Virus record (IMG/VR): IMGVR_UViG_3300036860_000214
Length of the DNA: 64,000 nucleotides
Source of the DNA: an uncultured virus (IMG/VR IMGVR_UViG_3300036860_000214)
Lineage: Duplodnaviria > Heunggongvirae > Uroviricota > Caudoviricetes
Direction: 5' to 3' (one strand)
The notes under the pieces: generated by a model
The model's database searches: none
Seen by the model: only the letters and a program-made list of their open reading frames with translations
Told to the model about the DNA's origin: nothing
Shown: in pieces, positions 25,623 through 46,465 of the stretch
Layout: the number at the start of each line of letters is the position of its first letter
Position numbering within the stretch: position 1 is the stretch's first letter
Position numbers and translations under genes: made by a program

Positions 25623-26122
25623 GCGGCGCCGCAATCCTCGACCAGGATCTGGCAGGGGTAGGTCGCATCGGCCTGGATGACGCAGGTACCGGTGCCATCG
25701 ACCCGCCCACCGGTGAGCTTGTAGGTGTGGGACGCCGCGGTCGGGTTGGGGATGTACACCCAGAAGTCAAAGCCGTCGGTGCCGGTGCCGCCGCTCTCGG
25801 AGCGGACGGTACGCTCCTGGAGCTGGGTGGAGCCTTCCTTGATGCGGAACACGAAGATGTCGGTCGCCACGGAGAACTGTAGGCCGCGGACCACCACCGA
25901 CACCCTCAGCAGCCGCGAGCTGTCAACCGGGGTGAATGCCGCCGCAGTGACGATGTCGGTCTCGGAGCTGGAGAAGGCGCTGGTGTTGGTGGTGCGCTGC
26001 CCGTACTTGACGGTGTCCTGCTTGTCCTTGAGGTAGGTGAGGTTGTTCTTGACCTGCGGGTCCCAGTAGCTGGAGGTGACGAGTTGGCCGAGTGTGGGCG
26101 TGGCCGGTGTCGTCCAGGTCAA
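25619..26122 (-). CDS. Minor tail protein
   Basis: TTG start, MTWTTP...QVKNNLTYLK, beta-rich; follows the tail-tip gene. Confidence 0.7.
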   Translation of the reverse strand: MTWTTPATPTLGQLVTSSYWDPQVKNNLTYLKDKQDTVKYGQRTTNTSAFSSSETDIVTAAAFTPVDSSRLLRVSVVVRGLQFSVATDIFVFRIKEGSTQLQERTVRSESGGTGTDGFDFWVYIPNPTAASHTYKLTGGRVDGTGTCVIQADATYPCQILVEDCGAA

Positions 26123-26138
26123 GGGTTAGACTCCTCAT

Positions 26139-26336
26139 ATGTCGGTCGAGACGGCGTTCCTGGAATGCTCTTGCGGGGCTGCGCTCATGTGGCCGGATGG
26201 AAGCAAGGTCGACCGCGTCCAGCTCGCCGACTTCCTCGCCTGGCATAGCGGCGATGGCCATGAATTGACCGTTGGCCTCGGCTACGAGTCCGACATGGAA
26301 GCCGGAGATCCCGCCCGGCTGTACCCCCCGCGCTAG
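26139..26336 (+). CDS. Antisense leaderless mini-gene 1 (Cys/His protein)
   Basis: TAGACT-6nt-ATG; stop shares CTAG at 26333-26336. Confidence 0.75.
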   Translation: MSVETAFLECSCGAALMWPDGSKVDRVQLADFLAWHSGDGHELTVGLGYESDMEAGDPARLYPPR

Positions 26337-29300
26337 AGGGCAACGCGGGTGGTCTGCCCGAACTCGCCATAGCCGGCGGTGCCGAACGCCCAGACCGCGA
26401 GCCCGTCGGCGGGTGAGCAGTTGAGCTCGATCGTCCACTCGCCGGTGCGGCGGTCCAGCCGCTCGGTCCAGCCTTCCACGAACACGTCCAGCGTCGAGGA
26501 TGGCGCCTGGGTGGGGAGGTTGGACAGCCGGACCATGCTGGACAGCTCCAGGGTGAGGATGGCGGCGACCTTGGCCGGGTCCTGGCGGGCCAGCCGCAGC
26601 AGCGACACGGTGAGGTTGGGCACCCGCGGGCGGGGGTCGCCGTAGGTCGAGGTGCGCCACTGCGCCAGCGCCGCAGCGGCGTCGTCGGTTTCGCTGACGA
26701 TCTCCGCAGAGTCGCGGGCCAGCCCGTACTCGTCGATGGAGGCTTGGTTGACGGAGCGGCCGCCGCCGCCGCCGGCGCGGGTGACGGTCATGTCGTTGAC
26801 CAGCCCGAAGTCGTCGCCGGGGAAGCCGAGGCCGACCTGGATGTGGCTGGCGGCGCCGTCCAGGGTGAGCGCGGGGGTCTGGTTGTAGCGCCGCGAGCGC
26901 CGCTGGAACGCGAGCTTGCCCTGGGCGTTGCAGAAAAGGACGCTCTGTTCGGTGCGCTCGACTTCCCGCATCGCCTCAAGGGGCTGCTTGGCCTGGGTGG
27001 CTTGGCCGCCGACGGTGGAGTCCCCGGTGTCCAGGGCGCGGTCGGCGGCGGGCAGGGCGATCCAGTCGGCGATGCGGCCGATGCGCTGGTCGGTGCGCTC
27101 CCCCTGAAGCCCATCGTGGCCGGCCTGGAACTGCTGGCCGATGCGGGTGGCCGATAACGCCGTGGCGTACCCGGCGATGTGGGACAGGGTGCCGGCGTAG
27201 GTGCCGGCGAAGCTGCCGTCGTGGGAGCCGCCCAGGTCCACGCGGGTCCAGACGGGCAGGGCCTGGTAGGTGAAGGTGGCGGTGTTGACCTGCGCGCCGT
27301 CGACGTACAGCCTCGCGGTCACCGTCGTCCCCGACCGTGACAGGGTGATGGCGGCGTGGTGGGTGCCGCCGTCGTTGTAGCTGTCCGGGGAGGTGTTGCC
27401 GGCGACCTGGTCGCCGCCGCCGGTGAAGCCCCACTGGACCCGCCCGTCCAGCCAGACCGCCAGGGTGAGGGCCTCCCCGGCGGAGGTGGTCAGCGAGCAG
27501 ATCGGCATGGCGTTGGGTGAGGGTGTCGCCGTGGTGGCGAACCATGCTGTTAGGGTCGTCGCCGTGCTCGACCAGGTGCCGGCGAGTGGCCCGAACAGGT
27601 AGATGCCGTTGGTCTGGCTGACCGGGGCGAACACCGCGGCCGAGAGGCCGTCGGTGCCGGGGCCGGTGCCTTGCCCGAAGGAGATGGTGCCGCCGGTGGA
27701 GTCGAAGGTGTGGCGGATCTGGGTGGCGCCCTGGGTGGTGGCGGCGACCGACGCCGCCGACGTCGACCCGTCCGGTTCCGCCAGGGGGTAGTAGGCCAGC
27801 GGGGTGTCGCGGAGGGTTTCTTCCTCGAGCATGGAGCGGAGCTCGCCGACGCCGGCGAGCCGCTTCAGCCGGTCGGTCGCGCTGATCAGCGCCTCGGCGT
27901 GGGCGGCGGAGCTGGTGATCCAGGCGGTCGGCCAGGCGTCGACATGGCCGTCGAACCGCACATAGCCGGTGCCGTTGAAGGTCTCCGACCAGCGCAGCCG
28001 CCGCCCGACCTTCACGTTGCTCCCGTAGGGTCCGCTGGTGCGGCCCATGGTGAAGCGGCCGTCGGCGTTGTTCAGCCGCAGCCGGATGGTGCCGGGCTGG
28101 ACCTCGCTGAACTCGTCGGGGCGGCCGTAGCCACGCTCGATCGGCCACCGCACGTACGGGGTGATGTCGGTCCAGGTCGGGGTCGGCGCCATCGGCTGGG
28201 TGTCGAAGGCGACCTCGATCCGCTGGGTGGGGAACCCGACCGCAGGCGCCCCCGACGCCGCCACCGACATGCTCTCAACGGCCGCGCCAGCATCGCTGAG
28301 GGTCTTCGGCACCGCGCCGGTCGCCACCGACAGCGTGTCGGCGCCGGTGCCGGTGTCGGTGAGGCTGGGGTTGGCAGCGACGTTGCTGGGCAGGATCGCC
28401 AGTTGCCCACAGATCCCGGTGCTTGTGACCGGCACCGTGGCCGTGTAGCTGCCGTGGCTGCCGGGCGCGACTGGGTTGGCGTTCAGCGAGGCGACCAGGC
28501 CGCCGGCGCCCGGGTTGGCGCCGGAGTTCACCGAGACGGTGGCCTCGGTCGAATGGGTGCCGGGCGGGGTACCGTAGTTCACACCGCCGTTGCCGGAGGC
28601 GTCGGCCCACCGGAACAGCCAGGCGGTGAGCAGGAACGCCTCGGGCGCGGTGGTGGTGACCGCCGCGGCGGCGTGGCTGGTCCCCGATGCCGTCGCGGTC
28701 AGTGACGCCTGCGCGTGCTCGGGGGTGGTGCCGTCGGCACCCCGGAGCAGCACCATCAGCCCCGAGGGGCGCACGCCCTGGCTGATGACCCAGGTCGGGT
28801 CAGGCTCGCCGGCCTGCAGGACCTTGGAGAACCGCCAGCCGACCTGGACGGTGGAGTTGGCGACCGGGCCCTCCTCCAGCACCCACCCGGCCGGCACGGT
28901 CGACATCGTCGGGTTGCTGTTGGTGGACAGCCACACCTCCGCGAGATCGCCCTGCTGCCAGCCCGTCGGCAGCACGAACGGGATCGACGAGGAGGTGACG
29001 GTGGCGCCGTCGCGGGCCAGCGCGACCCCGGCGACGAACACCGGCCCGGTCGACTGCCCCGCCTCGCTTGCGTCCTTGAGCGCCTGGAACGCGACCCCGT
29101 CCACCGACGGGGGGTCGTCGATGATGTTGGTGCGGGCGTCGAAATACCTGATCTCGGTGACGTTGCGGCTGGCGAGGTCGGGGAGGATGCCGCGGATCGC
29201 GTCGATGGTCTGCGCGCGGTGGCTGTTCGTCCCCCGGTTGACCCCACCGAGGTCCGCGCCCCATTCGGTGAACGCCTGCGGCTTGTCCAGGTAGGACCAG

Positions 29301-30652
29301 TTCCGGTTGGCGGTGGCGTTGGTGACCAGGAACTCGAGGTCCTCCAGCCATTTCGTCGCCAGCGTCGCCGGGGGGGTGGTGGCGATGATGTAATCTTGCT
29401 GGGCGACGACATCGACCAGGCCGTCCATCACGCCATCATTGCCGTACAGCGTGATCATGCCCTGGCCGGGACCCGAGAAGAAGTTGCTCGGATTGCTGTG
29501 GCTGTTCTGCCACACCAGCACCCAGACCACGTTGGTGACCGGGACGAGGTTGAAGCGGGTCCGCACCCGGTTCCACATGCCGCGGTAGTCGGCGGCGGTC
29601 CACCCCGCCCCACCGCCGTGGCTGGCGTGGTCGTCCTCGGGTTCGTGGTGGATCGTCAGCCACACGGTGCGTGGCGCGACCGAGGCGATCGAGGCGGCCG
29701 CGGCGTCGAGCTGGGTGTCGCGCAGCCCGGACGCGACGTCGGCCCAGGTGGACCCGCTGCCGCTGACCGCCATCGGCTTCCAGTAGACGTGCAGCAGCTT
29801 GCCGGCGTTGATCTTGGCGACGACCGGGGCCGATAGCGGTACCTCACCGGCCCCGAAGTACTGCGCCCAGTGGCCCTGCACCGGCCCGTAGATCGCCTCG
29901 CGGCCCGCCAGGGCGTTCTCCCATGACACCCCGTCGCGGTCGGCCCACAACCCGACCTTGGGGTAGATCGCCCCGCCGCCACCGCCACCGCCACCCCCGC
30001 CGCCGGTGGCGTTCTCCTTCACCAGCCACGTCAGGCCGCCGCCGGCCGAGGTGGAGATGTTGGACTCGGTGAACGGCCCCCAGGTGGTGGACGCGCCACC
30101 AACCGACCCGTTCGAGTCGGCTAGGTGCAGCGAGGTCGCCCCGGACCCGGTGCGCTGGAGGTCCTGCCGCTCCGTCAGGCCGCTGGCGGGGGTCCAGGCG
30201 GTCGGGTCGGTGCCGCGGCACCCGACCGCCGCCACGCCCCAGGTGCCCGCCACCGTCGACACCGAGGAGGGGGCGGTGTAGCTGGTCCCGGCGGTGTCGT
30301 GCGCCTGGAACGTGAGGTCGTCGATCCAGTCCGACGGGAACCCGTTGGAGGAGTGGAGGACGAAGCCCTCGACGATGACCTTGTTGGCCGCCGACACGGT
30401 GAACGTCTGGGTGGTACCGGAATCGGAGGCGGTGACGGCGTCCTTGGTCCAGGCGTAGAAGCGGGCGTTGCCGGCGTCGGCGGGGAACCCCGACCGCACC
30501 GACCACCCGGCCGGGGCGGTGATGGTCTGGGAGCTGGAGCAGATCCCGACCGCGCCGACGGCGTCGCCGAAGGAGATCCCGGCGGGGAGGACGGGGGCGG
30601 GATTGCCACTGGAGACGCCGGCGCCGAACGTCCCGACGAGCGAGATGGTCAA
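26333..30652 (-). CDS. Large tail-tip/minor tail protein with GH26-like hydrolase, beta-sandwich repeats and LamG domain
   Basis: 1439 aa directly after the TMP; HHEPED and FTEWG clan-A Glu motifs; PLAYYPL...YNDGGTHHAA...LYVDG; WTDITPYVR. Confidence 0.8.
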   Translation of the reverse strand: MTISLVGTFGAGVSSGNPAPVLPAGISFGDAVGAVGICSSSQTITAPAGWSVRSGFPADAGNARFYAWTKDAVTASDSGTTQTFTVSAANKVIVEGFVLHSSNGFPSDWIDDLTFQAHDTAGTSYTAPSSVSTVAGTWGVAAVGCRGTDPTAWTPASGLTERQDLQRTGSGATSLHLADSNGSVGGASTTWGPFTESNISTSAGGGLTWLVKENATGGGGGGGGGGGAIYPKVGLWADRDGVSWENALAGREAIYGPVQGHWAQYFGAGEVPLSAPVVAKINAGKLLHVYWKPMAVSGSGSTWADVASGLRDTQLDAAAASIASVAPRTVWLTIHHEPEDDHASHGGGAGWTAADYRGMWNRVRTRFNLVPVTNVVWVLVWQNSHSNPSNFFSGPGQGMITLYGNDGVMDGLVDVVAQQDYIIATTPPATLATKWLEDLEFLVTNATANRNWSYLDKPQAFTEWGADLGGVNRGTNSHRAQTIDAIRGILPDLASRNVTEIRYFDARTNIIDDPPSVDGVAFQALKDASEAGQSTGPVFVAGVALARDGATVTSSSIPFVLPTGWQQGDLAEVWLSTNSNPTMSTVPAGWVLEEGPVANSTVQVGWRFSKVLQAGEPDPTWVISQGVRPSGLMVLLRGADGTTPEHAQASLTATASGTSHAAAAVTTTAPEAFLLTAWLFRWADASGNGGVNYGTPPGTHSTEATVSVNSGANPGAGGLVASLNANPVAPGSHGSYTATVPVTSTGICGQLAILPSNVAANPSLTDTGTGADTLSVATGAVPKTLSDAGAAVESMSVAASGAPAVGFPTQRIEVAFDTQPMAPTPTWTDITPYVRWPIERGYGRPDEFSEVQPGTIRLRLNNADGRFTMGRTSGPYGSNVKVGRRLRWSETFNGTGYVRFDGHVDAWPTAWITSSAAHAEALISATDRLKRLAGVGELRSMLEEETLRDTPLAYYPLAEPDGSTSAASVAATTQGATQIRHTFDSTGGTISFGQGTGPGTDGLSAAVFAPVSQTNGIYLFGPLAGTWSSTATTLTAWFATTATPSPNAMPICSLTTSAGEALTLAVWLDGRVQWGFTGGGDQVAGNTSPDSYNDGGTHHAAITLSRSGTTVTARLYVDGAQVNTATFTYQALPVWTRVDLGGSHDGSFAGTYAGTLSHIAGYATALSATRIGQQFQAGHDGLQGERTDQRIGRIADWIALPAADRALDTGDSTVGGQATQAKQPLEAMREVERTEQSVLFCNAQGKLAFQRRSRRYNQTPALTLDGAASHIQVGLGFPGDDFGLVNDMTVTRAGGGGGRSVNQASIDEYGLARDSAEIVSETDDAAAALAQWRTSTYGDPRPRVPNLTVSLLRLARQDPAKVAAILTLELSSMVRLSNLPTQAPSSTLDVFVEGWTERLDRRTGEWTIELNCSPADGLAVWAFGTAGYGEFGQTTRVAL

Positions 30653-30669
30653 GGGCTATGCTCCCGGCC

Positions 30670-30870
30670 ATGGATGAACGGCTGGACGAACTCAAGGCGC
30701 GGCTCGAGCAACTTCAGGCCCATGAGCGGCTCTACCTGGAATGGGCCGATGGCCTGCCCCATGGCCTTGACCCGATACGGGCTGAGCAAGATGGCGTCCG
30801 GGTTGTCCCGAGTGCCGTCCGGGAACTGTTCCGAGCGGTGGCGGACGGCCGCATCACCGCCTGGGACTAG
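30670..30870 (+). CDS. Antisense leaderless mini-gene 2
   Basis: TATGCT-7nt-ATG; stop shares CTAG at 30867-30870. Confidence 0.75.
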   Translation: MDERLDELKARLEQLQAHERLYLEWADGLPHGLDPIRAEQDGVRVVPSAVRELFRAVADGRITAWD

Positions 30871-33423
30871 CTGAGCCCGAGCGCGACCCGGCCCTGGCGG
30901 CGCTTCTTGGCGAGCAGGCCGGTGTGGATGTCGTCCACGGCGACCACCGGCGGCCGCCGCTCCAGCGCCCGCACGATCGCGTCAGCGAGGCGGTCGTAGT
31001 CGATCCCGCCGCCGCGGTTCAGCGGGATGACGGCCTCTGGGCCGCGCTCGCCGACGCCGATGACGGTCGGCTTGGTGAAGATGCCGCCCTCGCCGTACCA
31101 GTGCGGCGACCGCGACAGCCACGCGCCGTAGGCGGCCGACGGCGACCCGTACCGCTGCTTGATGTACCGCAGCCCTGCGGCGATCTGCCCCACGGGGCTT
31201 GAGGTCTTGGTGGCCCCGACCGACGCCCAGGTCGAGTTGAGGAACTGGAACAGCCCGTACGCGGTGGAGGTGGGGTTCTGGGCGTTGGGGTTCCACCCTG
31301 ATTCGTTCTGCACAAGGGTCCGCAGGGCGTTCCACTGGGTACCGGTCCAGCCGTAGCCGGCGGCCATCCGCTGCGCGAGCTTCTGGAGGTTGCCGCTGGT
31401 GCCGCCCTGGCCGATCCCGGCGAAGATGCCGCCGAACCAGTCGACGACGTCGCCGCCGATGGACTTGACGATCGCCTGGAGGCTGCTGCGGGTGGTGACC
31501 AGCCCGCGGACCAGCCCGAGGATGATGTTGCGTCCGAGCCCCGCCATGACCGTGGACGGCGAGGCGATGCCGAACAGATCCTTGATGCCGCCGACGATGT
31601 AGTCCTTGACGCTGCGCAGCACCCCACCGATGGCGCCGAGCGCACCGCGAATGCCGCCGACCAACCCGGAGATCAGGCTGCGACCGGCGCGGATCAACCA
31701 GCCACCAGCGGCCCGGAACGGCCGCGTCAGGTCACTGATGACGATGCCGGCTTCCCGGCCCACGAGGCCAAGCGCCGACGCGATCCCGCGGACCAGCCCG
31801 CGGATCGCGTCGATGCCATGACGGATCAGCCAGCCCGCCGCTCCCCGGAACGGCCTCGTGACCGCGGCGATGACCCGGCCGATGTCCTTGACAACCTGGG
31901 CGATCTCCTCGCCGATCCCGGCGGCCAGGAGGCGGATCATCCGCGCGCCGAGCTTGCGGAACGCCTCAGCGCGTAGCGAGATCCACGCGCCCAGGTCGCC
32001 GATCCGCCCCCGGACGGTCTTGGCAGCGGTCGGGAAGACCCGCTCCATGCCTTCCCGGAGTCCCTGACTGATCAGGCCGCCGAGCTTGGCGGCGGCCTGG
32101 CGCAGCGGCGCGGTCGCCGACTCCAGGATGCGGAACAGGGGCGCGAAGGCACGCGCGAACGGGATCTTCTCCAGGATCTTGGCGATGGTGCCGCCGAGCT
32201 TGCCGAAGGGGATGAAGGCCAGCAGCGCGCCGATGGCTGCCCCCGGGTGCTCCTTGGCCGTCTTGAACAGCGCATCCAGCAAGGCGTCGAAGAAGCCCAA
32301 CGCGAATGGCACCGCGACGAAGACGGCTTCCTTGCCGACCTTGAACCAGTCCACCCCGCCGAAGGCGCGTCTGATGAGGTCGATGCCGTTGCCGATGGCT
32401 TGGCGGAGGATGTTGCCGATGATCCCGCCGAGCTGGCCCCAGTCCCCGGTCTTGAGACCCACCTGGAACCCGACGATCACGGCGTTGGCGGTGCCCTTGA
32501 TGCGGGCGGCGAGGTTGCGGCCGAAGATCTTGGCGTCCAGCTTGAAAGTGTCGAACCCCTCCTGGATGCCGCCGGTCAGGCCGCTCACCGCTGGCCCGAC
32601 CGCGTCGCTAAGCCGTCTGGCGAATCGCTCGACCCCGGGGATCAGGGTCTTGGTCAGGAAGCCGAAGACGCCGACGAGCGCCGGCAGCAGCACGGCGCCG
32701 ATCCGCTCCTTGATGTTGCCCATCAGGACGCTGAACCGCTGCCACGGGTCCGCAGCGGCGGCGGCGGCACCACCGAACTCCGACTTCAGCTCGCCCAGGA
32801 TGATCTTCTGGGCGCCCATCTTGTCGCCCGCCTCGACCAGCGCCTTGATCTGGTCCTTCTGCTTCTGCGTGAACGTGACGCCGACTCGGGTCAGGGCGGT
32901 GATGCCCTTGATCGGGTCGTTGAGGGCTTTGCCGACCTGGATGGTGGCCTTCTCCAGGCCCTGCTGGCTGACCTCCCCCTGGTGCATGGCGGCGGTCATG
33001 TCCAGGATGACCGCGCTGGCCTGGTCGAAGATCCGGTTGCCCTTGCCGACCTCGTTGCGGATGCCCTTGAAGGTCAGCAGCATGTTCGCGCCAGCAGCGA
33101 TGACCTCGTCGTCGACGCCGACGAGGTTGGACAGGCGGGTGGCGAGCCGATCCACGCCTTTGGCGGAGATATTGGCGACGCCGCCGGTGGCCTTGATGAC
33201 CGCGGCGGTCTGCCGGCCGACCTTCTGCGCCTCCCGCGCCTCGTCGATCGCGTCCTTGAAGAACCCAGCGATCTGGATACCAGCAAACGCGCCGCCGATG
33301 AGCGCACCGGTCTTCAGCGCCAGCCCGCCGAACCGCTTGAATTTCCCTCCGGTCTGGTCGAGCGTGCGGCCGAGGGTGCGATCTCTACCCAGGAGGTCGA
33401 AAGCGGAGAGCTCTATCAGCCAT
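30867..33423 (-). CDS. Tape measure protein with C-terminal lytic transglycosylase; apparent 1-nt frameshift near 33400
   Basis: GKALNDPIKGITALTRVGV; ESGWNPNAQNPTSTAYGLFQFL; ATG 33423 hits TAG after 12 codons unless one T of TTT is removed. Confidence 0.85.
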
Positions 33424-33446
33424 CTCCCCGCATCACCTCCTCGGCG

Positions 33447-33983: not shown

Positions 33984-34065
33984 GTCGGCACGCTCCAGTC
34001 GTGTCGGCCAGGCCCCCGGCGATGCCCGTCGCGCGGGGGCCACTCATAAGCATTTTACCAGGTCA
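33984..34065 (-). promoter_or_regulatory. HNH leader motif, copy 4
   Basis: TGACC-TGG-TAAAAT...GAGTGGCCCCC...GGGGGCC...CGACACG-ACTGGAG-CGTGCCG-AC-ATG. Confidence 0.75.
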
Positions 34066-34081
34066 ACGCCACTATCCGCGG

Positions 34082-35129: not shown

Positions 35130-35303
35130 ATGAGATGGTTCGTGTTCTTCGCGCTCATGGCGCTGAGCTGGCAGGGCGTCAAGTTGCTGCCCTGGCCGGG
35201 CTGGGCGCAGATCGTCGTCCTGCTGGCAGTCAACCTCGTGGTCGGCGCGCTGCTATGGCCCAGCGATCAGGCCGAGCAGCAACCCGGGCAGGAACCGCGC
35301 TAG
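35130..35303 (+). CDS. Antisense leaderless mini-gene 3 (two-TM protein)
   Basis: TATGCT-7nt-ATG; MRWFVFFALMAL...; stop shares CTAG at 35300-35303. Confidence 0.75.
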   Translation: MRWFVFFALMALSWQGVKLLPWPGWAQIVVLLAVNLVVGALLWPSDQAEQQPGQEPR

Positions 35304-35704: not shown

Positions 35705-35713
35705 TGCATCCTC

Positions 35714-36782: not shown

Positions 36783-36786
36783 CCCC

Positions 36787-37071
36787 ATGAGCTTGTGGAT
36801 CGTATGGAACGGCTGGGTGGGCGCCGCCTCAACCGGTGCGCTGGTGGAGGCACCTGATCGTGAGGCCGCGCTGGCGGCTGGCTCTGCGGCGCTGCGTGCA
36901 GAGGCCGAGCAGCCAGCGGTCGGCCGCGACGGGCCGACCTACCCGGAGTCCTACTGGCATCCCGGGCGACTCACCGTTGAGCGTGTCTCGCTGCCACTGG
37001 TTGGCAGCTTCGACATACCCACCGATGACGCAGCCGAAGAGATCGCCGACTGGCTCACGCGGAACCGTTAG
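36787..37071 (+). CDS. Antisense leaderless mini-gene 4
   Basis: CAAGAT-7nt-ATG; stop overlaps TTAG at 37068-37071. Confidence 0.7.
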   Translation: MSLWIVWNGWVGAASTGALVEAPDREAALAAGSAALRAEAEQPAVGRDGPTYPESYWHPGRLTVERVSLPLVGSFDIPTDDAAEEIADWLTRNR

Positions 37072-37481
37072 GCCAGCACGCTCACCAGGAACTCGGCGCC
37101 GAGATACTCCACCCCATGCCACGCCACCGGCCCGGCGTTGGCCACGCTGGTGACCGTCGCCGCGTCGCACACCCCGCCGAGCGTCGGCGCGGCGCCGACT
37201 GCGGCGTAGACCGAGTCGGCGCCGCTCACGTCCAGGTAGCCGTCCAGGGCGTCCTGGGCGACCCCGCCGTCGGCGAGGGAATGCAGCAGCAGGATCGAGA
37301 AGGTGTAATCGTGGCTGGTGCCGCCCATGCTGGTGCTGTAGGTGATCGCCGGGGAGCCCATGCGGATCACCGCGCCCGGGGTCTCCACCTGCCCGGGGGC
37401 ATCCTCGTAGATGCCTTTGAGGCTGGCGATGGTCTCCAGGCGGTCGGTGAGGCCGGCGCGGAGCTGGGCGAGGGTGGCCGT
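37068..37481 (-). CDS. Tail terminator-like protein with apparent ACG start
   Basis: AAGGAG-6nt-ACG, then ATLAQLRAGLTDRLETI...QDALDGYLD...TLGGV. Confidence 0.7.
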   Translation of the reverse strand, partial: TATLAQLRAGLTDRLETIASLKGIYEDAPGQVETPGAVIRMGSPAITYSTSMGGTSHDYTFSILLLHSLADGGVAQDALDGYLDVSGADSVYAAVGAAPTLGGVCDAATVTSVANAGPVAWHGVEYLGAEFLVSVLA

Positions 37482-37495
37482 GGGATACTCCTTGC

Positions 37496-37729
37496 ATGTT
37501 CTCGACAGGTATGTTCTGGGCTGGCTTCTTCTCCGGCATCGCCGTACTGCTTGGGCTTGCGGCTTGCGCGCTTGCGCTCGCCTACCGGTTCAGCCCCGAA
37601 GGCCGGGAAGGCGCGGCCATCAGGGACCGGCTCCGCGCGGAAGGCGTCCAAGCGCGCAGCGAGCTACGGCAGCAGCGGTGGAACAAGGTCCGCGAGGAAC
37701 TCCGGCGGGAAGGGAACCTCCCGACCTAG
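37496..37729 (+). CDS. Antisense leaderless mini-gene 5 (single TM)
   Basis: GATACT-6nt-ATG; stop shares CTAG at 37726-37729. Confidence 0.7.
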   Translation: MFSTGMFWAGFFSGIAVLLGLAACALALAYRFSPEGREGAAIRDRLRAEGVQARSELRQQRWNKVREELRREGNLPT

Positions 37730-38640
37730 GCGAACCCGGTGGGGATGCGGTAGGGCGTCAGCAGACCGACCACGTCGGCATCCTCGCGCGTGATGCGAAT
37801 GGGGCCGAACTCCAGGCCGCCGGCCTCGTTCCCGAACGGCGCATCGGGCCGCCGGTTCAGCCTGATGGCCTTCAGCAGCGTGGCCTCGCGGACGGGATCG
37901 GGGATCTGCGACCAACCGTGACGCGCGGTCACCTGCAACGTCGGCCGGCTGCCGTAGCCGAGCGGGTACGGGAACGTCTTGGACCCCACCGCCACCAGCC
38001 GGTTCCACCGGTACGCCCCGCCGTTGCCGGCGGCGTTCAGCGGCTCGAGCTGGAAGTCGGTATCGATGGTCCAGGTCGTCTCGAACACCCCGTCACCGTC
38101 GCTGTCGGTCTTCACGACCAGCCCCGTCGTCGAGCCGATGTCGTCCACCGACGCGCACCACAGGTCGCGGGTGCGGTAGGTGCGGGAGGTCGGGATCGGG
38201 TCGAGCCAGAACCGGTGGAGCGGCCGGGAGCACCAGTCGTCCACCGCGCGGGACGCCGACCGGAGCCGCTGCTCGAGCTTGCCGGCGTCCAGCCGCAGCG
38301 CGGTGTCGTCCTTGAGGGCCTCCCGCAGCTCCCCCACCGTCGCGTACAGCGTGCCGGCCAGGTTCGGCTCGACCAGGAACGACCCGTCCTCCGCCGTGGT
38401 CGCCGCACCGGTCGCCGTCCACCGGTAGATCCACTCCCCCGCCTGGTCGGGCGCGACCGGGGCCGTGTAGACGCCGGTCGACTGGTTGGTGATCGACGCG
38501 GCCGGGTGGGTGCCGTCCGGGGCCGTCAGCGTCAGGGTCACGGTGGCGTTGGTGAGCGTCTCCACGCCGGTCACCGGGTCCTTGACCTTGACGGTGAACT
38601 TCAGCGAGACCGAGTCGCCGAGGTCGTAGGTGCTGGGCAT
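37726..38640 (-). CDS. Head-tail connector (gp6-like) fused to an N-terminal Ig-like domain
   Basis: YATVGELREAL...ASRAVDDWC...TARHGWSQIPDPVREATL...DADVVGLLTPY. Confidence 0.8.
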   Translation of the reverse strand: MPSTYDLGDSVSLKFTVKVKDPVTGVETLTNATVTLTLTAPDGTHPAASITNQSTGVYTAPVAPDQAGEWIYRWTATGAATTAEDGSFLVEPNLAGTLYATVGELREALKDDTALRLDAGKLEQRLRSASRAVDDWCSRPLHRFWLDPIPTSRTYRTRDLWCASVDDIGSTTGLVVKTDSDGDGVFETTWTIDTDFQLEPLNAAGNGGAYRWNRLVAVGSKTFPYPLGYGSRPTLQVTARHGWSQIPDPVREATLLKAIRLNRRPDAPFGNEAGGLEFGPIRITREDADVVGLLTPYRIPTGFA

Positions 38641-38672
38641 AGACTTCCTCGCACACGAGGGGAGGTGGCAGG

Positions 38673-38912
38673 GTGTTCGAGGGTCCCGTAACGGCGATGT
38701 TCACCGAGAACGGAATCGTGCTGCATGGCCTGCCGGGCGGCCGCCTCCAGCTAGCCGTCGGTCACTCAGCCGGCCTGCACCACGAGCACTACGTCGTACA
38801 GATTCAGGTCGTCACCCATGACCAAGCCAAGGCGGCACCGCGGGATCTGATGGCGGTGCATGAGTACCGCGACGAGTCCGGAACTCGCGTGACCTGGGGC
38901 GGGCCTCCCTAG
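38673..38912 (+). CDS. Antisense mini-gene 6
   Basis: TAGACT at 38640, GGAGG, GTG start; stop shares CTAG at 38909-38912. Confidence 0.65.
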   Translation: MFEGPVTAMFTENGIVLHGLPGGRLQLAVGHSAGLHHEHYVVQIQVVTHDQAKAAPRDLMAVHEYRDESGTRVTWGGPP

Positions 38913-39778
38913 AGCTTGTCGCGCTCCGGGCCGTAGCGGGCCACGATCTCCTCAGCCCAGGCCAGCAGGTCAACGGCGCGCTGGCCGGACGGCTGGTGAA
39001 CGGCCCATAGCTCCAAGTTGGTCAGACGGTTATCCGCCCGGACGCCGTTGCGGTGGTGGACGTTCTCGCCAGGGAGCAACTCGCGACCCAAGTGCCGCTC
39101 CATGACCAGGATGTGCTCCTTCACCCGGCCTCGCGGCGGCCCGACGTTGATCTCGACGTAGCCCTCGTCGTTGACTCGGCGGTGGTTGGTCGGATCACGG
39201 ACGATGCTCTCCTTGCGCCAAGCGTACTGGCAGGCGCGCGAGCAGAACCGCTTGGGGCTCAGGGGTCGCCGCTTGCCCTTCGGTAGCGGGACGCGGAACT
39301 CCGTCTTGCACCACTCGCAGGCTCGCGTCCCAGCGCGGCAATCCTGGGTACAGAACCGCTGGGCCGGGCCGGTCGAAGTGAACTGCTTGCCGCATCGGGT
39401 GCAGATCTTTGCTTGGCGGTTGCCACCCGGCCATCGGGTATGTCGGGGGATGTCGAACTCGCGCAGGTGGTACTCGACCGAGCCCTTTGAGCAGCCGACC
39501 TCATCAGCGATGTCTTGCGCTGCTCGACCCAACTCGGCGTACTGCTGGCGGAGCCAGGCGGCGTCGTGGAGCTGCGGGTACTTGCTGCTGTTGCTCGTCA
39601 GGTTCTTCGACTTGATCGGCACACGATGCTTGAGCAGGTAGTGCCGGACGAGTCCGGGGTCGCAACCGACCTCGGCGGCGATGTGCTTGATGGGCCGGTC
39701 CAGCGCGACATGCTGCTGGTAGAGCCAGTCTCGGTCGTTCAGCTCGGGGTATTTGCTGCCGTTGGGGTTCGGAGGCAT
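38909..39778 (-). CDS. HNH endonuclease with two HTH repeats and Zn fingers; leaderless
   Basis: SKYP.L.D..WL.QQ...IA.EVGC x2; EHILVMERHLGR...VHHRNGVRADNRLTNLELW; TAAAAT-6nt-ATG. Confidence 0.9.
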   Translation of the reverse strand: MPPNPNGSKYPELNDRDWLYQQHVALDRPIKHIAAEVGCDPGLVRHYLLKHRVPIKSKNLTSNSSKYPQLHDAAWLRQQYAELGRAAQDIADEVGCSKGSVEYHLREFDIPRHTRWPGGNRQAKICTRCGKQFTSTGPAQRFCTQDCRAGTRACEWCKTEFRVPLPKGKRRPLSPKRFCSRACQYAWRKESIVRDPTNHRRVNDEGYVEINVGPPRGRVKEHILVMERHLGRELLPGENVHHRNGVRADNRLTNLELWAVHQPSGQRAVDLLAWAEEIVARYGPERDKL

Positions 39779-39804
39779 ACACCGATTTTATCGCAAAGCA
39801 TCGT

Positions 39805-40455
39805 CTATGTCATGTCGATGTTGAACGTCGCAGTCCATGTCTGGCCTGAGGCTTTTGTCCCTTGTGCGGAGACCAGCCGGTTGAGCAGGTTGGAGGCGGC
39901 GCCGTTGTCGGCATCGGCCCCGCCGGCATCGACCCCGGCTTCGGCCCAGGCGAAGTTGGCGACGCCGGTCCCGAACGTGGACACGAACGCCAGCCGCCGC
40001 ACCGCCGACCCGGTGCCGACGGTCGGGGCGCCGGTCACCTGCTTCCAGTAGCGGTTGGACCCGGCCGCGGTGGACGCAGACAGGTCGGTCTGGGATGAGG
40101 CGGCGGCGGCGGTGGCGGTCCCGACGCCGATCCGGGCGTTGGCGGAGGCGTAGGTGGTGCCGCCGCCAGCGATGGCGAGGAGGAGCACACGGTCCCAGCC
40201 GCCGGTGACCAGCAGGTTCGGCCCATCGGTCGTCTCCGAGTAGGGGCGGACGCCGTAGCGGTGGAAGTCGACGGGGCCGGGCTGGATGAACCCGCGCTGG
40301 CCGGCGCGGGCACCGCCGAGCTTGCGGGACACCCAACTGGCGGCATCATCATCCCACCGGGCGACGGTCAGCATGCCGTGGGCGCGGCCGCTTTCGCTCC
40401 CGGACAGGCCGACGTGGATGCCGAACGCCTCAGCGGCGCGGCCGGACTCGCTCAT
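39805..40455 (-). CDS. Probable virion structural protein
   Basis: NLLVTGG...IGVGT...FGTGVANFAWAEAGV...LLNRLV..GTKASGQTW. Confidence 0.7.
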   Translation of the reverse strand: MSESGRAAEAFGIHVGLSGSESGRAHGMLTVARWDDDAASWVSRKLGGARAGQRGFIQPGPVDFHRYGVRPYSETTDGPNLLVTGGWDRVLLLAIAGGGTTYASANARIGVGTATAAAASSQTDLSASTAAGSNRYWKQVTGAPTVGTGSAVRRLAFVSTFGTGVANFAWAEAGVDAGGADADNGAASNLLNRLVSAQGTKASGQTWTATFNIDMT

Positions 40456-42023
40456 CCTGCACAGACCTCCTCGTAGATGTCCCGCCAGCGGGTCCAGCCC
40501 TGCTGGATGGTGTGACCGCGGGCGACTTCCTTGGCCTTGGCGCCCATCTCGATCCGGGCGGCCTCGTCGTTGACGAGTTCCGTCAACCTGGCCCGCCACT
40601 GGTCGGGGGTGCGCACCAGATACCCGGTGACGCCGTCGATGACGAACTCCCGGTAGGGCTCCAGGTCGCTAGCGACCACCGGGATGCCGAGCGCGGCATA
40701 CTCCAGCGCCTTGATCGGGGTGCGTGCCCGGTTGAACGGGGTGTCCCGCAGCGGGACCACACCGATGTCGCCGTCGATGGCGGCGTAGTAGCTCCAGACG
40801 TTCGGCTGCCATCCGGTGAAGCGGCCGCGGTCGCCGAAGATGGGTCGGTAGTCGAACCCGAGCATATGCCAGTCGACCTGCGGGTCGGCGTCCAGCAGGC
40901 CCTTGACGGGGTCGCGGACCAGCTCGAGGTCCTGGAGGTGGTTGGCACCGCCCGCCCAGCACAGCGTGACCCGCTCCCGCCGGGGCCGCTCCAAGGCGAG
41001 CAGGTCCTCGTGGATGAAGTTGGGGACGACCACGATCCGGTCGTTGTAGGGGCGGTAGACCTCGGCCAGCGTCTCCGTGGAGGTGGTGACCAGGTGGCTG
41101 GCCCGCAGGCACGCCTTGATCTGCTCGCGGGTCTCCGGGTCGAGCAGGTGCGGGGCGCCGGAGGGGTCGGGTTCCAGCAGGTTGTCGTCGACCTCGTAGA
41201 CGGTGCGGGTGAGCTCCCCCCACCGCCGCCACCGTCGGGTGCCGAGCTCGCCGGCGGGCCGCTGGCGGGCGAGCAGGTCGAACTCCTCCACGATCTCGTC
41301 GTCGGGGAGGATGCGATGCTCGCCGGGGTCGGGGATCGCGACCTGATGGCCGGACCAGCGGGCGAGCTGGGTCCAGGGCTGCCAGAACCGGTAGTAGCCG
41401 CACCCGTCCGGTTCAGCGGGCATGCCCAGCCACTTGCGCACCGGGTTCGGCATCGGGGTGACGCCTGGCACATCCGCAAGGAGGTCGGTATGGAGGGCGT
41501 GGTCAACCAGTTCGCGGCCGTACCACGGCTTCGGCATGCGGGCCTTGCAGAACACCCCGGGGTACTCGGGGTCGTCCATCACGACCAGGGGCTCCAGCAG
41601 CAGTCGCTGAAGGATCTCAGCCATGGCCTGCTGGGTGTAGCGCCAGCGGTCGGGCGGGTGATGGTAGGCGAACCCGGGCGAACGGGTCGTCCACACGAGC
41701 ACCCCGCCGGGGCGCAGCACCGCGACCATGTTGGCGATGGCGGCCTGCCAGTCCTCGGCGTGCTCCAGCATCTCGGTGCTGATGACCACGTCGAAGCTAT
41801 CCGGGCCGAACGTGGCCGCCAGGTCGACGGCGTCCAGCACCCGGTCGACCCCGGGCCCGTCGACCACGTCGACGCCGACGTAGCTGGCCGGGCCGCGGGC
41901 CATGACGAACGGCCGCACCGACCCGTTCACATCCAGCGAGCCGACCTCGAGGACGTCCTTGCCGGCGACCTCGCCGCCTTGGAGGGCACCGTAGGCGAAG
42001 AATCCGAGCACCGACCCGTGCAA
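40452..42023 (-). CDS. SAM methyltransferase fused to GT4-like glycosyltransferase
   Basis: TTG start; DVLEVGSLDVNGS...FDVVISTEMLEH...LRPGG; DGCGYYR...YEVDD...DIGVVPLRDTPFN...IKALEYAALGIPVVAS. Confidence 0.88.
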   Translation of the reverse strand: MHGSVLGFFAYGALQGGEVAGKDVLEVGSLDVNGSVRPFVMARGPASYVGVDVVDGPGVDRVLDAVDLAATFGPDSFDVVISTEMLEHAEDWQAAIANMVAVLRPGGVLVWTTRSPGFAYHHPPDRWRYTQQAMAEILQRLLLEPLVVMDDPEYPGVFCKARMPKPWYGRELVDHALHTDLLADVPGVTPMPNPVRKWLGMPAEPDGCGYYRFWQPWTQLARWSGHQVAIPDPGEHRILPDDEIVEEFDLLARQRPAGELGTRRWRRWGELTRTVYEVDDNLLEPDPSGAPHLLDPETREQIKACLRASHLVTTSTETLAEVYRPYNDRIVVVPNFIHEDLLALERPRRERVTLCWAGGANHLQDLELVRDPVKGLLDADPQVDWHMLGFDYRPIFGDRGRFTGWQPNVWSYYAAIDGDIGVVPLRDTPFNRARTPIKALEYAALGIPVVASDLEPYREFVIDGVTGYLVRTPDQWRARLTELVNDEAARIEMGAKAKEVARGHTIQQGWTRWRDIYEEVCAG

Positions 42024-42039
42024 GCTGTACCCTTTCGGT

Positions 42040-42207
42040 ATGACTCTGGTGCTGCCGGTCCTGGTTCTGCTGGTGGCGGTCGGCCTGGTTGTTGGCGTCG
42101 GCGGCGAGATCAGCCCCGCCGCGTGGATCGAGGGGTTGCTGCTGACGGCGCTGCTCATCACTGGCTGCGTCGGGTTCGCCCTCTACGCGGCCGCGCATCA
42201 CTGGTAG
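42040..42207 (+). CDS. Antisense leaderless mini-gene 7a (two-TM protein; absent from the ORF track)
   Basis: TACCCT-6nt-ATG; MTLVLPVLVLLVAVGLVV...LLLTALLITGCVGFALY. Confidence 0.65.
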   Translation: MTLVLPVLVLLVAVGLVVGVGGEISPAAWIEGLLLTALLITGCVGFALYAAAHHW

Positions 42208-42279
42208 CGGGCTGATGCGCTGCCGACGCTGCGGATTCCCGATGGTGCATGCCACCGACGCCGGCACCTGGTACTACGT

Positions 42280-42537
42280 GTGCCTCGGCTGCGGCATCTA
42301 CCTTGGGCCATTCCCGAAGGTGTGGAAGGTATGAACCTGCTGATGCGCTGGCAGTTGTGGCGCGACCGCCTCGTCAACCGGCCGATCATCGTCAAGTCCC
42401 GCCCCGGCACCCCCGCCGAGATGGGCTTTGATGAGCACGGCCGCAGGACGCTGGCAGACGGCCGCGTGCTCCAGATCCTTCCGACCTCCACCTGCGGCTG
42501 TGACTTCTGCCGTTCCTGGGGCGACTGGCCGAGCTAG
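42280..42537 (+). CDS. Antisense mini-gene 7b (start uncertain)
   Basis: C-terminal CGCDFC; stop shares CTAG at 42534-42537. Confidence 0.6.
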   Translation: MPRLRHLPWAIPEGVEGMNLLMRWQLWRDRLVNRPIIVKSRPGTPAEMGFDEHGRRTLADGRVLQILPTSTCGCDFCRSWGDWPS

Positions 42538-43949
42538 AGCACCTGCGCCTGCCACGCGACGGTCGTGCCCGCCCCGCCTGGCGCTGCTTTGAGGTTGAGG
42601 GTGAAGTCGGTGGATGTGATGGCGCTCACCCAGGCATGCCCGGCCGCCAGGGGGTCGGCGGCGAACTGGAGCGAGAAGTCCTTGGCCGCCGGGGTCACCG
42701 ACAGGCCATGGGCGACTCCGGTGACGGAGGTGATCGCCGCGCCGAAGGCGACCGTGCCGCTGGACTCGGTGACCCAGTTGATGTTCTGGCGGATGATCGC
42801 CGGCAGCGAGGTCGACCCGGCGTTGTTGACCGCCGCCGTCCCGAACGAAGACGCGGCGGTGAACACGTTGCCCGTGATCAGGGTGTTCTGCGCGGCGGTG
42901 GACGCGAGGTTGACGCCGTAGCGGGCCTCGTTGGTCACCCCGCTCTTGACGCCGATGGCGTTGCCGACGATCACCGTCCGACCGACGCCGTTCCCGGATG
43001 GGCCCTGGACGATGACGTTGTCGTAGGTGTTGTTGCTGCTGTCGCCGTTGCTGGAGATCCCACACCCGAGGATCTGGATGTCGGAGAAGCCGCCGTTGGT
43101 GGAGTCGATGTTGATACCGTGCTGGCCGGCGCCCTCGATCTTGCACGCCTCGATCTTGGTTCGGCTGCCGCCACCGTCGAAGAAGACGTTGTAGCGGGTC
43201 GCGTCATACAGGTGGCAACCGGTGATCTGGAGGCTGCCGGCCTTGATGAGCACCGAGTCCTGGTTGTTGTAGACAACCGAGCCGATCATGTGGCCGTCGG
43301 CGCTGAAGCTGTCGTAGTAGACCCCGGCGGCGGCGTTGTCGCCGGCCTGGATGGTGCGCAGCACGGTGTCGTAGAGGTCCCAGGTGGCGTAGCCGAGCAG
43401 GTGGAACCCCGCGCCGCTCATGCGATGCACATGGACATGGTCGACTAGCCCGCGGTTGGAGCGGTACAGGATGCCGTCGACGCCGGAGCCGACGGTACCG
43501 CCGTCCAGGGTGAAGTCGCGCAGGGTGACGCCATACAGGGGCCGGTCATCGGCGACCCGCTGCACCCGGATCGCCTGGCTGCCGGTGAACCCCGCGCCGA
43601 CCTCGATCCTGGCGCCGACGGCATCCTGGGTGGCGCCGACCCGCTGCCCGGTGCCGGCACCGACCAGCATGGTGGCTTCCTGCTGGATGAGCAGCGGGGC
43701 GGTGATCTTGTAGCGGCCCCATGGCAGATACACGACCCCGCCGGTGGCGGGGACCGCGGCCAGGGCGGCGTTGATGGCACCGGTGTCGTCGGTGGACCCG
43801 TCCCCGACCGCGCCGAAATCCTGATCGACGACGAACAGGGGGCCGGTGTTGAACGCCTCATGCAGCCGCGGATGATGCCCGGCGGTGCCGAGATGATGGC
43901 CTGCGGCACCGCCGGCGATCGACAGCGGCAGCGGGTTGGTGTACGGCAC
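42534..43949 (-). CDS. Right-handed beta-helix (pectate-lyase-like) tailspike/depolymerase
   Basis: DFGAVGDGSTDDTGAINAALAA...GGVVYLPWGRY; Asn/Gly beta-helix repeats. Confidence 0.85.
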   Translation of the reverse strand: MPYTNPLPLSIAGGAAGHHLGTAGHHPRLHEAFNTGPLFVVDQDFGAVGDGSTDDTGAINAALAAVPATGGVVYLPWGRYKITAPLLIQQEATMLVGAGTGQRVGATQDAVGARIEVGAGFTGSQAIRVQRVADDRPLYGVTLRDFTLDGGTVGSGVDGILYRSNRGLVDHVHVHRMSGAGFHLLGYATWDLYDTVLRTIQAGDNAAAGVYYDSFSADGHMIGSVVYNNQDSVLIKAGSLQITGCHLYDATRYNVFFDGGGSRTKIEACKIEGAGQHGINIDSTNGGFSDIQILGCGISSNGDSSNNTYDNVIVQGPSGNGVGRTVIVGNAIGVKSGVTNEARYGVNLASTAAQNTLITGNVFTAASSFGTAAVNNAGSTSLPAIIRQNINWVTESSGTVAFGAAITSVTGVAHGLSVTPAAKDFSLQFAADPLAAGHAWVSAITSTDFTLNLKAAPGGAGTTVAWQAQVL

Positions 43950-43958
43950 CGGCGCCCC

Positions 43959-44135
43959 TCAGTAGATGTCGGCGTAGAGGTCCGAGTAACCACCATCGGC
44001 TGGCGGCAGCGTCGTGGTCGTCGTGGTCGTCGTGGGGGCGGGGCCGTGCTGATGGCCGGGCTTGTGGTGCGCCCAGGCCGGCGTGGCAGCCAGCACGAGC
44101 AGGCCAGCAGCGGCGAGGAACGCGCGGCGGGTCAC
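43959..44135 (-). CDS. 58-aa putative Tat-exported poly-Thr peptide (absent from the ORF track)
   Basis: MTRRAFLAAAGLLVLAATPAWA-HHKPGHQHGPAP-T8-LPPADGGYSDLYADIY. Confidence 0.7.
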   Translation of the reverse strand: MTRRAFLAAAGLLVLAATPAWAHHKPGHQHGPAPTTTTTTTTLPPADGGYSDLYADIY

Positions 44136-44206
44136 TGCTGTCGCCCTCCGACCTCGGCGCCTTGGAGGGCGCCATAGGCGAAGAACCCGAGGACGGACCC
44201 GTGCAT
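44132..44206 (-). pseudogene. Truncated 5' copy of the methyltransferase-GT gene
   Basis: MHGSVLGFFAYGALQGAEVGGRQQ*; 49/56 nt identical to 41968-42023. Confidence 0.85.
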
Positions 44207-44220
44207 CTACACTCCTGGCT

Positions 44221-44517
44221 ATGGGAAAGCGAGTCAGTAGCTACGACCCCGACGCGCGGCTGCCAGGCGTCGGCTCGATTTACGTCTGGGAACTCGACCA
44301 GCCACATGCCCGTGATCTCATCCGGGTCACGGAGGTCTTTTGGAACGGCGAGGAGTGGTGGGTTCGCACGGAGACACTCATGCGAGGCCCCTCGCATATG
44401 CTGTTCGGGACGCCAGCACCCGCCAGTTATCTGAATGACCTGAGCCGCTTCTGGGAGGCCGTCACGCCGGTTCGGGAGACGAGGACGCCACGACCGACCA
44501 CGGCGGTTAGCGCCTAG
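44221..44517 (+). CDS. Antisense leaderless mini-gene 8
   Basis: TACACT-7nt-ATG; stop shares CTAG at 44514-44517. Confidence 0.75.
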   Translation: MGKRVSSYDPDARLPGVGSIYVWELDQPHARDLIRVTEVFWNGEEWWVRTETLMRGPSHMLFGTPAPASYLNDLSRFWEAVTPVRETRTPRPTTAVSA

Positions 44518-46439: not shown

Positions 46440-46465
46440 CGGCGGCTCCCGTTGAGGCTAGGCGG

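Follow-up and report, generated by a model that had tools for sequence, protein, structure and literature searches.

Eight small antisense add-on units, probably morons in reusable slots, in the late operon of an uncultured soil actinophage

Results

Antisense units among the late genes

The window analysed, a 64,000-nt stretch of DNA from an actinobacterial soil virus, harboured eight small add-on units (U1–U8) antisense to the minus-strand structural genes (Table 1). The phage encoded RecT, a repressor-like/Cro-like pair, a tyrosine recombinase and an excisionase-like gene, and was probably a temperate actinobacterial siphophage. Long contigs from two soil DNA runs, either of which was a possible source of the window, covered most of 25301–45300 with 0 differences, and none of the joints listed for these contigs, which drop rare variants, skipped a unit. 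None of the listed holders of 34001–44000 was an RNA run, which is uninformative as to expression. G001 was the same phage (100%) and gave no independent comparison. Cultured phages yielded no blastn match to 34100–39000 and no tblastn match to U8 or the major tail protein.

The coordinates of all eight plus-strand units in the original prediction were confirmed, except that U7, given as 42040/42280, was better read as three genes (U7a–c), with no GTG start at 42280. The units had also been described as each filling the gap between two late genes. U8 did not lie before an intact late gene but preceded a dead 24-codon copy of a methyltransferase 5′ end and whose junction was carried on this truncated methyltransferase/glycosyltransferase duplicate. 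GC content of the inserts was 0.64–0.69 vs 0.71, a slight drop.

Table 1. Units, junctions and neighbouring features (-10 hexamers and leaderless or leadered starts are predictions; gap is the distance in nt to the start codon)
Feature	Position	Strand	-10-like hexamer (gap)	4-nt overlap	Description
Late operon harbouring the units	24824–60749	-			terminase, portal, protease, capsid, sugar-modifying enzymes, adaptor, terminator, tail
U1 dual-use junction	26120–26138	both	TAGACT 26127–26132		minus strand: TTG start and GAGGAG SD, gene 25619–26122; plus strand: -10
U1 cargo	26139–26336	+	TAGACT 26127 (6)	CTAG 26333	65-aa leaderless orphan with a CxC motif; stop overlaps gene 26333–30652
U2 dual-use junction	30650–30669	both	TATGCT 30657–30662		tail gene 26333–30652: TTG start and SD; other strand: -10
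U2 cargo	30670–30870	+	TATGCT 30657 (7)	CTAG 30867	66 aa, orphan; overlaps tape-measure stop
U3 cargo	35130–35303	+	TATGCT 35117 (7)	CTAG 35300	57 aa, membrane protein; overlaps major tail gene stop
U4 cargo	36787–37071	+	CAAGAT 36774 (7)	TTAG 37068	94 aa; overlaps tail terminator
U5 cargo	37496–37729	+	GATACT 37484 (6)	CTAG 37726	77 aa, membrane protein; degenerate -10
U6 cargo	38673–38912	+		CTAG 38909	79 aa, leadered; overlaps stop of HNH gene
HNH endonuclease	38909–39778	-			free-standing, own promoter; absent together with U6 from matching L124 junction
U7a	42040–42207	+	TACCCT 42028 (6)		55 aa, membrane protein, leaderless
U7b	42215–42334	+			39 aa, putative Zn ribbon
U7c	42331–42537	+		CTAG 42534	68 aa, ATGA-coupled to U7b; overlaps beta-helix tail-spike-like gene
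Truncated methyltransferase/glycosyltransferase 5′-end duplicate	44132–44206	-			24 codons; 89% over 57 nt to 41966–42022
U8 cargo	44221–44517	+	TACACT 44208 (7)	CTAG 44514	98 aa, leaderless

All eight units, each with a -4 overlap, were called by a self-written codon-model gene caller that gave a small bonus to TAnnnT starts. Long antisense ORFs are common in high-GC DNA and a YTAR stop comes free, as would be expected if the units were shadows in neutral spacer DNA. When seven gaps were dinucleotide-shuffled 5000 times each (the multigene U7 was excluded), an in-frame gap-filling ORF occurred in 2.9–19.3% per gap, with a product of 9 × 10⁻⁹ over the seven gaps, and an ORF together with TAnnnT in 0.06–0.34% per gap. 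Relatives lacked spacers at the corresponding junctions, and U4 and U8 belonged to protein families, which refuted the shadow reading for these two units; overall it is very improbable.

Cargo proteins

U4 had two homologues (76% and 69%). U8 belonged to a conserved phage family (80 matches, with close homologues at 79–91% identity) whose members usually lie in co-directional small-gene operons, overlap-coupled in L015, L016, L018, L020, L021 and L023. In fold searches U8 gave no Foldseek match at E 0.001, and its top VIA match was the CarD Tudor-like domain (Z 6.1; 55 aligned at rmsd 1.8), level with many Tudor/SH3 folds; as a lead only, U8 may be a Tudor/SH3-like barrel. For U8 and U5, Atlas matches either had no name or fell under the bar, and the match of U7b to Pfam Zn_Ribbon_TF (E 0.005) was below the cut-off. 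No homologues of U1 and U2 were found in a deep search, and none of U3, U5, U6 and U7 by exact look-up, in profile libraries or in the relative loci; three weak matches of U1 were discarded as long repeat proteins with a common Cys motif. Nothing in the window cargo was above cut-off in Pfam, PHROGs, NCBIfam or PADLOC, and 0 of the 10 cargo proteins matched a PADLOC anti-phage defence profile at E 0.05. Hydropathy agreed with the prediction of three membrane proteins (U3, U5 and U7a).

Slots in related phages

For slots U1–U6, the flanking genes were adjacent in the relatives compared. Junctions in relatives were closed (gap ≤20 nt) in 49/52 cases between adaptor and terminator, 13/14 between TMP and the next gene, 4/4 at the U1 slot, 25/34 between MTP and neck and 30/48 between terminator and GT. 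The flank pairs of U7 and U8 were never found together in relatives, and methyltransferase homologues had an upstream gap of ≤20 nt in 16 of 20 cases. In L124 the U4 site was empty (TGATG) and the U5 site held a different cargo, while in L126 the U5 site was empty; empty sites were mostly TGATG/ATGA, and the U3 slot was the most often filled. Both U5 and its L124 counterpart, and likewise U7 and U8, had the late-gene start and -10 in common, with identity stopping at the ATG and the cargo differing thereafter. By these comparisons the units are shown to be insertions in slots that are empty or otherwise filled in relatives, as foreseen for a dispersed moron system with swappable cargo.

Across 160 relative loci, 95 distinct antisense runs were called by a caller that favours TAnnnT starts and makes some false calls; a -4 overlap was present in 26/95 and TAnnnT in 28/95, vs 0.45% of background starts. 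Among the 86 relative loci of at least 10 kb, 55 were without any unit and none had more than two; the window has eight. Of 119 related phage clusters, between 13 (strict) and 33 (loose) contained units according to a sequence rule. Purifying selection on cargo was supported by dN/dS below 1 (0.24–0.86) in 8/8 homologous cargo pairs in relatives. The cargo of relatives included four lipobox proteins, many membrane proteins, and Phd and RHH/Arc proteins, and in L019 seven coupled genes formed an antisense cassette that lay between tail genes and had these same junctions.

Promoter-end junctions

A -10-like hexamer had been placed 6–7 nt before the ATG in seven of the eight units. The positions stood, but TAnnnT fitted at leaderless spacing in only five; the boxes of U4 and U5 were degenerate, and their promoters may be weak or decaying. 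U6 is read as leadered, having an SD of its own (GGAGG) and TAGACT at 38640. These predicted promoters were above chance by shuffling. The glycosyltransferase TTG start sits inside the -10 of U4, the terminator gene next to U5 appears to start at ACG 37481, and the L124 counterpart of the U5 -10 is TAGACT.

The promoter end can be read as a dual-use junction of ~25 bp, with a putative late-strand ribosome site and weak TTG/ACG start on one strand and a -10 and ATG on the other. The U1 junction motif was also found in L124, L180 and L199, and an 18-base junction pattern was repeated in four phages, across four different late genes. A broader junction pattern gave 35 viral matches and was rejected, as 27 were without a long gene start and looked like chance. 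In relatives, enrichment after leaderless inserts was significant neither for SD (14/22 vs 375/872, p 0.08) nor for TTG (2/22 vs 26/872, p 0.15).

The immunity-region repeat ACAGCCG was absent from the unit promoters, so nothing suggests that the units are switched off in the lysogen. The units might instead be early-lytic accessory genes, moved from early operons and active in the first minutes of infection, not lysogen-protecting. The co-directional U8 operons of six relatives point this way, as do the L019 cassette and a homologue in L018 of the L047 cargo; since U8 relatives are mostly found in co-directional accessory operons, expression in early infection is as plausible as in the lysogen. 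Arguing against it are the repressor-like/Cro-like, recombinase and excisionase-like genes, the absence of ACAGCCG at the promoters, and lipoprotein and membrane cargo, which is typical of exclusion genes. A purely early-lytic role is thus a possibility of some weight, though we lean against it.

Stop overlaps and insertion targets

As predicted, a 4-nt overlap was present at every unit (Table 1). YTAR ended 12 of the 36 late genes; eight of these 12 bore a unit, and 0 of the other 24 did. Because all its bases belong to the late gene, the tetramer is offered automatically. CTAG as a special junction grammar was not sustained: it is the commonest (28%) of convergent 4-nt overlaps in bacteria, followed by TTAG/CTAA beside TTAA, according to excerpts of bioRxiv 10.64898/2026.09.10.750558 and PMC2174442, and a target-duplication test was null. 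The window differs in that the same CTAG/TTAG forms are repeated eight times in one operon. For the slot after the major tail gene, TAG/TAA stops were enriched where the slot was filled (18/23 vs 37/82, p 0.008). The U5-slot cargo of L124 extended past the adaptor stop, indicating that the -4 overlap is not obligatory.

Cassettes could have been inserted at CTAG/TA by a site-specific or transposase-like machine, for which the recurring 18-base pattern speaks, or units could have been carried by HNH endonucleases through homing, as HNH2 and an L199 homologue each have a CTAG end that abuts antisense cargo, the point at which DNA similarity ceases. However, the two ends of 22 units (one row, L199, being one base out of register) resembled each other no more than permuted pairs did (p 0.43 and 0.52); empty sites were mostly not CTAG, and those in L124 and L126 lacked it, against insertion sequences or MITEs with CTAG or TA targets; and an HNH gene adjoined only one of the eight units. 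Such machinery is quite improbable. The by-eye idea that the 'TA' of the -10 is a copy of the stop 'TA' by target-site duplication failed the permutation.

Terminators and antisense transcription

No U-tract terminator was present at any unit end, in line with the original prediction, and no outlying hairpin was found in the 150 nt after each unit (z -0.7 to +0.9). In excludon-type antisense control, the opposite operon is lowered by a long antisense RNA. Eight terminator-less convergent promoters might damp leaky late transcription, the antisense RNA or promoter being the main product and the proteins passengers. The absence of terminator-like hairpins favours this, as does the P22 ant moron, for which PMC2629481 suggests an influence on transcription reading into the tailspike gene. 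Nevertheless, the units are dispensable, given the many relative loci without any, the cargo is under purifying selection, the predicted transcripts begin just past the late-gene SD and leave it uncovered, and Rho could stop them quickly; RNA as the main product is therefore improbable. The missing terminator does not disqualify the units as morons, since these are defined by a promoter, an operator and/or a terminator (PMC2920897 and PMC2629481, in part).

Discussion

We consider it probable that the units are morons in reusable slots between late genes, gained by an inferred capture mechanism. Illegitimate recombination would place small genes of the phage accessory pool in reverse at the boundary between two genes. 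Such an insert would persist only if it gave back a ribosome site to the downstream late gene, whose translation is coupled where the site is empty, and if the cargo start codon coincided with +1 of a TAnnnT promoter, all that leaderless expression in actinobacteria would require; a single ~25-bp junction could serve both conditions. Deletion would trim the 3′ end to the first antisense stop available, the upstream late gene's YTAR, and phages would swap filled slots through recombination within the late genes on either side (phage RecT). While the late operon is silent, in the lysogen and in early infection, the cargo would be transcribed by the host housekeeping sigma factor. The three membrane proteins would most likely have envelope or exclusion roles, and soluble cargo would modulate host or phage.

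A bolder proposal, speculative and rather unlikely, is that CAAGGGYTAnRCTCC-N4-5-ATG, the junction, serves as a portable plug working both ways (SD and TTG of the late gene on one strand, -10 and leaderless ATG on the other) and is copied between different late genes, so that any small gene joined at the ATG would be expressed at once with virion assembly intact. The late operon of a large family of uncultured soil actinophages would then be a gene-capture array, and terminator-less antisense RNA tiling it would keep the prophage quiet.

Such junctions would offer phages a minimal route for gene addition inside a translationally coupled operon, ~25 bp supplying promoter, ribosome site and start. 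Applied to uncultured actinophages, the rule (antisense orientation, YTAR overlap and TAnnnT 6–7 nt ahead of ATG/GTG) points to candidate genes for expression in the lysogen and yields a ready list of small exclusion/defence candidates.

HK97 gp15 is an example of a temperate-phage moron. In available descriptions, the units resemble such morons in insertion between conserved genes, variability, hotspot slots, a predicted own promoter and membrane, TA or regulator cargo. They differ in that eight lie within 18 kb, all antisense and predicted leaderless with no terminator found, in a promoter fused with the downstream late-gene SD and start, and in a GC drop that is only slight; they are, as read from sequence, an extreme leaderless, terminator-less variant of moron. 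A literature search, with subscription papers largely outside its scope, gave no report of an actinophage late operon with several leaderless antisense morons. In actinobacterial data, a TANNNT -10 and 5′ ATG/GTG are enough for expression (PMC4633059 and PMC4895711, in part), which agrees with the predicted leaderless expression from host promoters; the -10/start arrangement is the same, but theirs is in chromosomal genes and ours is a prediction. The Tab moron of Pseudomonas phage JBD26 is likewise a small opposite-strand gene within the late operon and has a promoter of its own, there for prophage expression and here predicted (PMC10884400, in excerpt). Tab, however, has one locus, an anti-Tab partner and proven defence, whereas no homology or partner came to light for our cargo, which is unrelated from slot to slot. 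The P22 'ant moron' slot, as partly described in PMC2629481, similarly holds different gene sets at one late-operon position, with a possible effect on late read-through; P22-like phages have this single slot, whereas the present family uses many, with no repressor/antirepressor circuit in the units of the window. Moron genes are known, and what is unusual here is the density of antisense units.

Phage and late operon

The window covered nearly the whole phage (its proteins are recorded on 64,506 bases), with a GC content of ~70%, and its sequence was contained in two soil DNA runs with zero differences in long contigs (either may be its source). The nearest cultured relatives of the portal were in Rhodococcus and Gordonia phages (~45%). 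The phage carried RecT, a tyrosine recombinase and an excisionase-like gene, as well as a Cro-like HTH gene opposed by a probable repressor, and therefore it was probably temperate. The minus-strand late operon extended from terminase through the tail genes and contained several sugar-modifying enzymes; such genes among virion genes suggest glycosylation of the virion. Features of the window are listed in the table.

Features of the window and late-strand starts at the unit junctions
Feature	Position	Strand	Remark
Late-strand start, U1, U2, U4 and U7		-	TTG
Late-strand start, U3, U6 and U8		-	ATG
Late-strand start, U5 (tail terminator gene)	37479-37481	-	apparently ACG, 6 nt past AAGGAG
Free-standing endonuclease genes, late operon	33447-34043, 38909-39778 (HNH2), 53909-54493	-	two HNH, one endonuclease VII type; HNH2 with near-consensus promoter, TAAAAT 6 nt 5′ of ATG
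Short repeats	6600-7132 (early region) and 23131-23557		two in common, 75-78%
Cro-like/repressor-like pair	11043-11206		divergent, three ACAGCCG repeats; tyrosine recombinase and excisionase-like gene next, in repressor's direction
Leaderless two-gene operon	15748-16637	-	opposes neighbours; TACACT 6 nt before ATG; similar-looking pair with CTAG overlap in another viral genome (G006)
Sugar-modification genes	35714-53545	-	glycosyltransferases, GDP-mannose dehydratase, C-methyltransferase, methyltransferase-glycosyltransferase fusion amid virion genes; kept in relatives
Glycosyltransferase start	36700-36776	-	from TTG, stop after 13 codons
Methyltransferase stub and 58-aa ORF	43959-44206	-	dead stub gives SD and GTGA overlap to ORF; ORF with signal-like N-terminus, Thr run and YSDLYADIY tail echoing motif of gene 44514-46439; probably a rearrangement product
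CTAG pair	46458-46469		8 nt apart in short late-gene gap; possibly scar of a lost unit
78-aa ORF	55977-56213		directly before capsid gene; repeats capsid N-terminus (vs 55842-55979, 70% over 138 nt)

Eight antisense units

Eight plus-strand units (U1-U8) had been predicted between minus-strand late genes in 26120..44517; our coordinates agreed, and a codon-model gene caller recovered all eight, each with the expected 4-nt stop overlap. In the proposed control with shuffled sequence, an in-frame gap-filling ORF with this overlap arose in 2.9-19.3% per gap, and the joint figure over seven gaps (U7 excluded) was 9e-9. Of the -10-like hexamers claimed for seven units, five were TAnnnT boxes 6-7 nt before the ATG, but those of U4 and U5 were degenerate, retaining just A and the final T. 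U6 combined TAGACT with a short leader and an SD of its own, and U7 is best read as three genes (U7a-U7c), the last two being ATGA-coupled.

The overlap tetramer was made wholly of late-gene bases. YTAR ended 12 of 36 late genes, and a unit faced eight of these 12 and none of the other 24. CTAG is described as the most frequent convergent overlap in bacteria (bioRxiv 10.64898/2026.09.10.750558; PMC2174442). No terminator was found at the unit ends, and therefore plus-strand read-through into the upstream late gene would be expected.

Insertion slots in relatives

Relatives were fetched via the major tail, glycosyltransferase, adaptor and tape-measure proteins (two fetches being the best 80 of 289 and the best 80 of 476 matches), and 160 loci from ~119 distinct phages were analysed. 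In this presence/absence comparison, suggested in the original prediction, unit junctions were mostly closed or filled by unrelated cargo. Gaps of ≤20 nt were seen at adaptor-terminator (49/52), tape-measure-next (13/14), tail-neck (25/34) and terminator-glycosyltransferase (30/48) junctions and at the U1 slot (4/4). The two closest relatives offered direct empty sites with TGATG coupling (L124 at U4, L126 at U5), and L124 was also without HNH2 and U6. The units were thereby shown to be insertions, and their slots to be reused.

Among 95 distinct antisense runs in the relatives, a -4 overlap was found in 26 (19 CTAG, 4 TTAG and 3 CTAA), TAnnnT in 28 and both in 13, counts that are approximate because the caller favours TAnnnT starts by a bonus and part of the runs are false calls; in the background, TAnnnT preceded 258 of 57,319 antisense ATG/GTG codons. 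An antisense call followed 23 of 105 distinct major tail genes, and a TAG/TAA stop ended 18 of these 23 vs 37 of the 82 without (p 0.008). Most relatives did without such units: 55 of 86 loci of ≥10 kb had none, 28 had one and three had two, so eight in 18 kb was extreme. A more distant phage (G003) carried three units of like build, one being a seven-gene cassette with a U8 homologue.

Putative dual-use junction

The near end of the insert gave the late strand its SD and start codon; read in reverse, these late-gene bases formed the cargo gene's -10 box and spacer. The U5-junction start position was TTG in L124 and ATG in L126. CAAGGGYTAGACTCC-N4-ATG occurred in eight viral stretches; in seven it began a late gene, the ATG being that of an unrelated antisense ORF, and the eighth stretch was unrelated. 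The late genes included the tail terminator (L124 and the L199 phage), a glycosyltransferase (L180) and window gene 25619-26122. A looser pattern gained U2, plus 27 apparent chance matches.

Cargo was shown to be exchanged at the ATG: for U5 vs L124, and for U7 vs U8, identity extended across the late-gene 5′ end and from the -10 box to the ATG, with changes beyond. A switch at this point is the prediction for leaderless genes, because a 5′ ATG or GTG is reported as both necessary and sufficient for leaderless expression in mycobacteria (PMC4633059) and the Streptomyces -10 motif is given as TANNNT (PMC4895711). In the relatives, neither SD nor TTG was significantly enriched after leaderless inserts. 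U8 was attached to a 24-codon dead duplicate of the methyltransferase start, and the L124 cargo extended beyond the adaptor stop. Target duplication at insertion was rejected, since the ends of 22 units were no more alike than those of permuted pairs.

The glycosyltransferase had 4 additional bases near 36738 vs its homologues (L180, HPGPNFSVADVH). This longer form was in both DNA runs, with an X1 contig break at 36686-36725; the gene looks interrupted, or restarting at GTG 36718.

Cargo proteins

U8 had 80 matches (self excluded; 15-member 90% cluster), in which Trp-rich motifs were invariant. Its model (pLDDT 85) was a small beta-barrel similar to Tudor/SH3 domains, with no standout match. 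Co-directional operons of small genes housed at least six of the 10 fetched U8 loci; the two loci L017 and L019 were antisense amid late or lysis genes. U4 had two homologues; searches with U1 and U2 found none, leaving them as orphans. Three membrane proteins were borne out (U3, U5 and U7a, each with at least one hydrophobic segment). No window cargo protein passed the cut-offs of Pfam, NCBIfam or PADLOC; a single weak match was obtained from PHROGs (U5, E 0.026).

Among 41 cargo proteins of the relatives, four had a lipobox, many were membrane proteins and two belonged to the Phd/YefM antitoxin family; RHH/Arc proteins were also present. Some cargo was shown to be conserved, dN/dS being <1 in 8/8 homologous pairs (0.24-0.86; short alignments). 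At L199 (1520-2146), a 208-aa antisense cargo was flanked by the tail terminator and an HNH2-related HNH gene; it carried what we take to be a GIY-YIG-like motif and had no match in NCBIfam.

Proposed mechanism and comparison with known morons

Small genes may be captured out of an accessory-gene pool via illegitimate recombination, an insert surviving only if it restored the late SD and placed a start codon at +1. The 3′ end would be trimmed to an antisense stop already available there, and units would be exchanged through recombination within flanking genes. The host housekeeping sigma factor would transcribe the cargo during late-operon silence.

The reading of the units as morons was supported: across the relatives, they fit the comparative definition (insertion, with variable cargo), morons being defined in PMC2920897 and PMC2629481. 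This arrangement was not found described for actinophages in the literature covered, which left out most subscription papers. Tab is reported as an antisense moron within a late operon with proven defence (PMC10884400); the likeness lies in the antisense position in a late operon, whereas proven defence is a feature of Tab. Compared with known morons, the units of the window differed in their number (eight), in a predicted leaderless and terminator-less build, and in a putative promoter fused to the ribosome site of the neighbouring gene.
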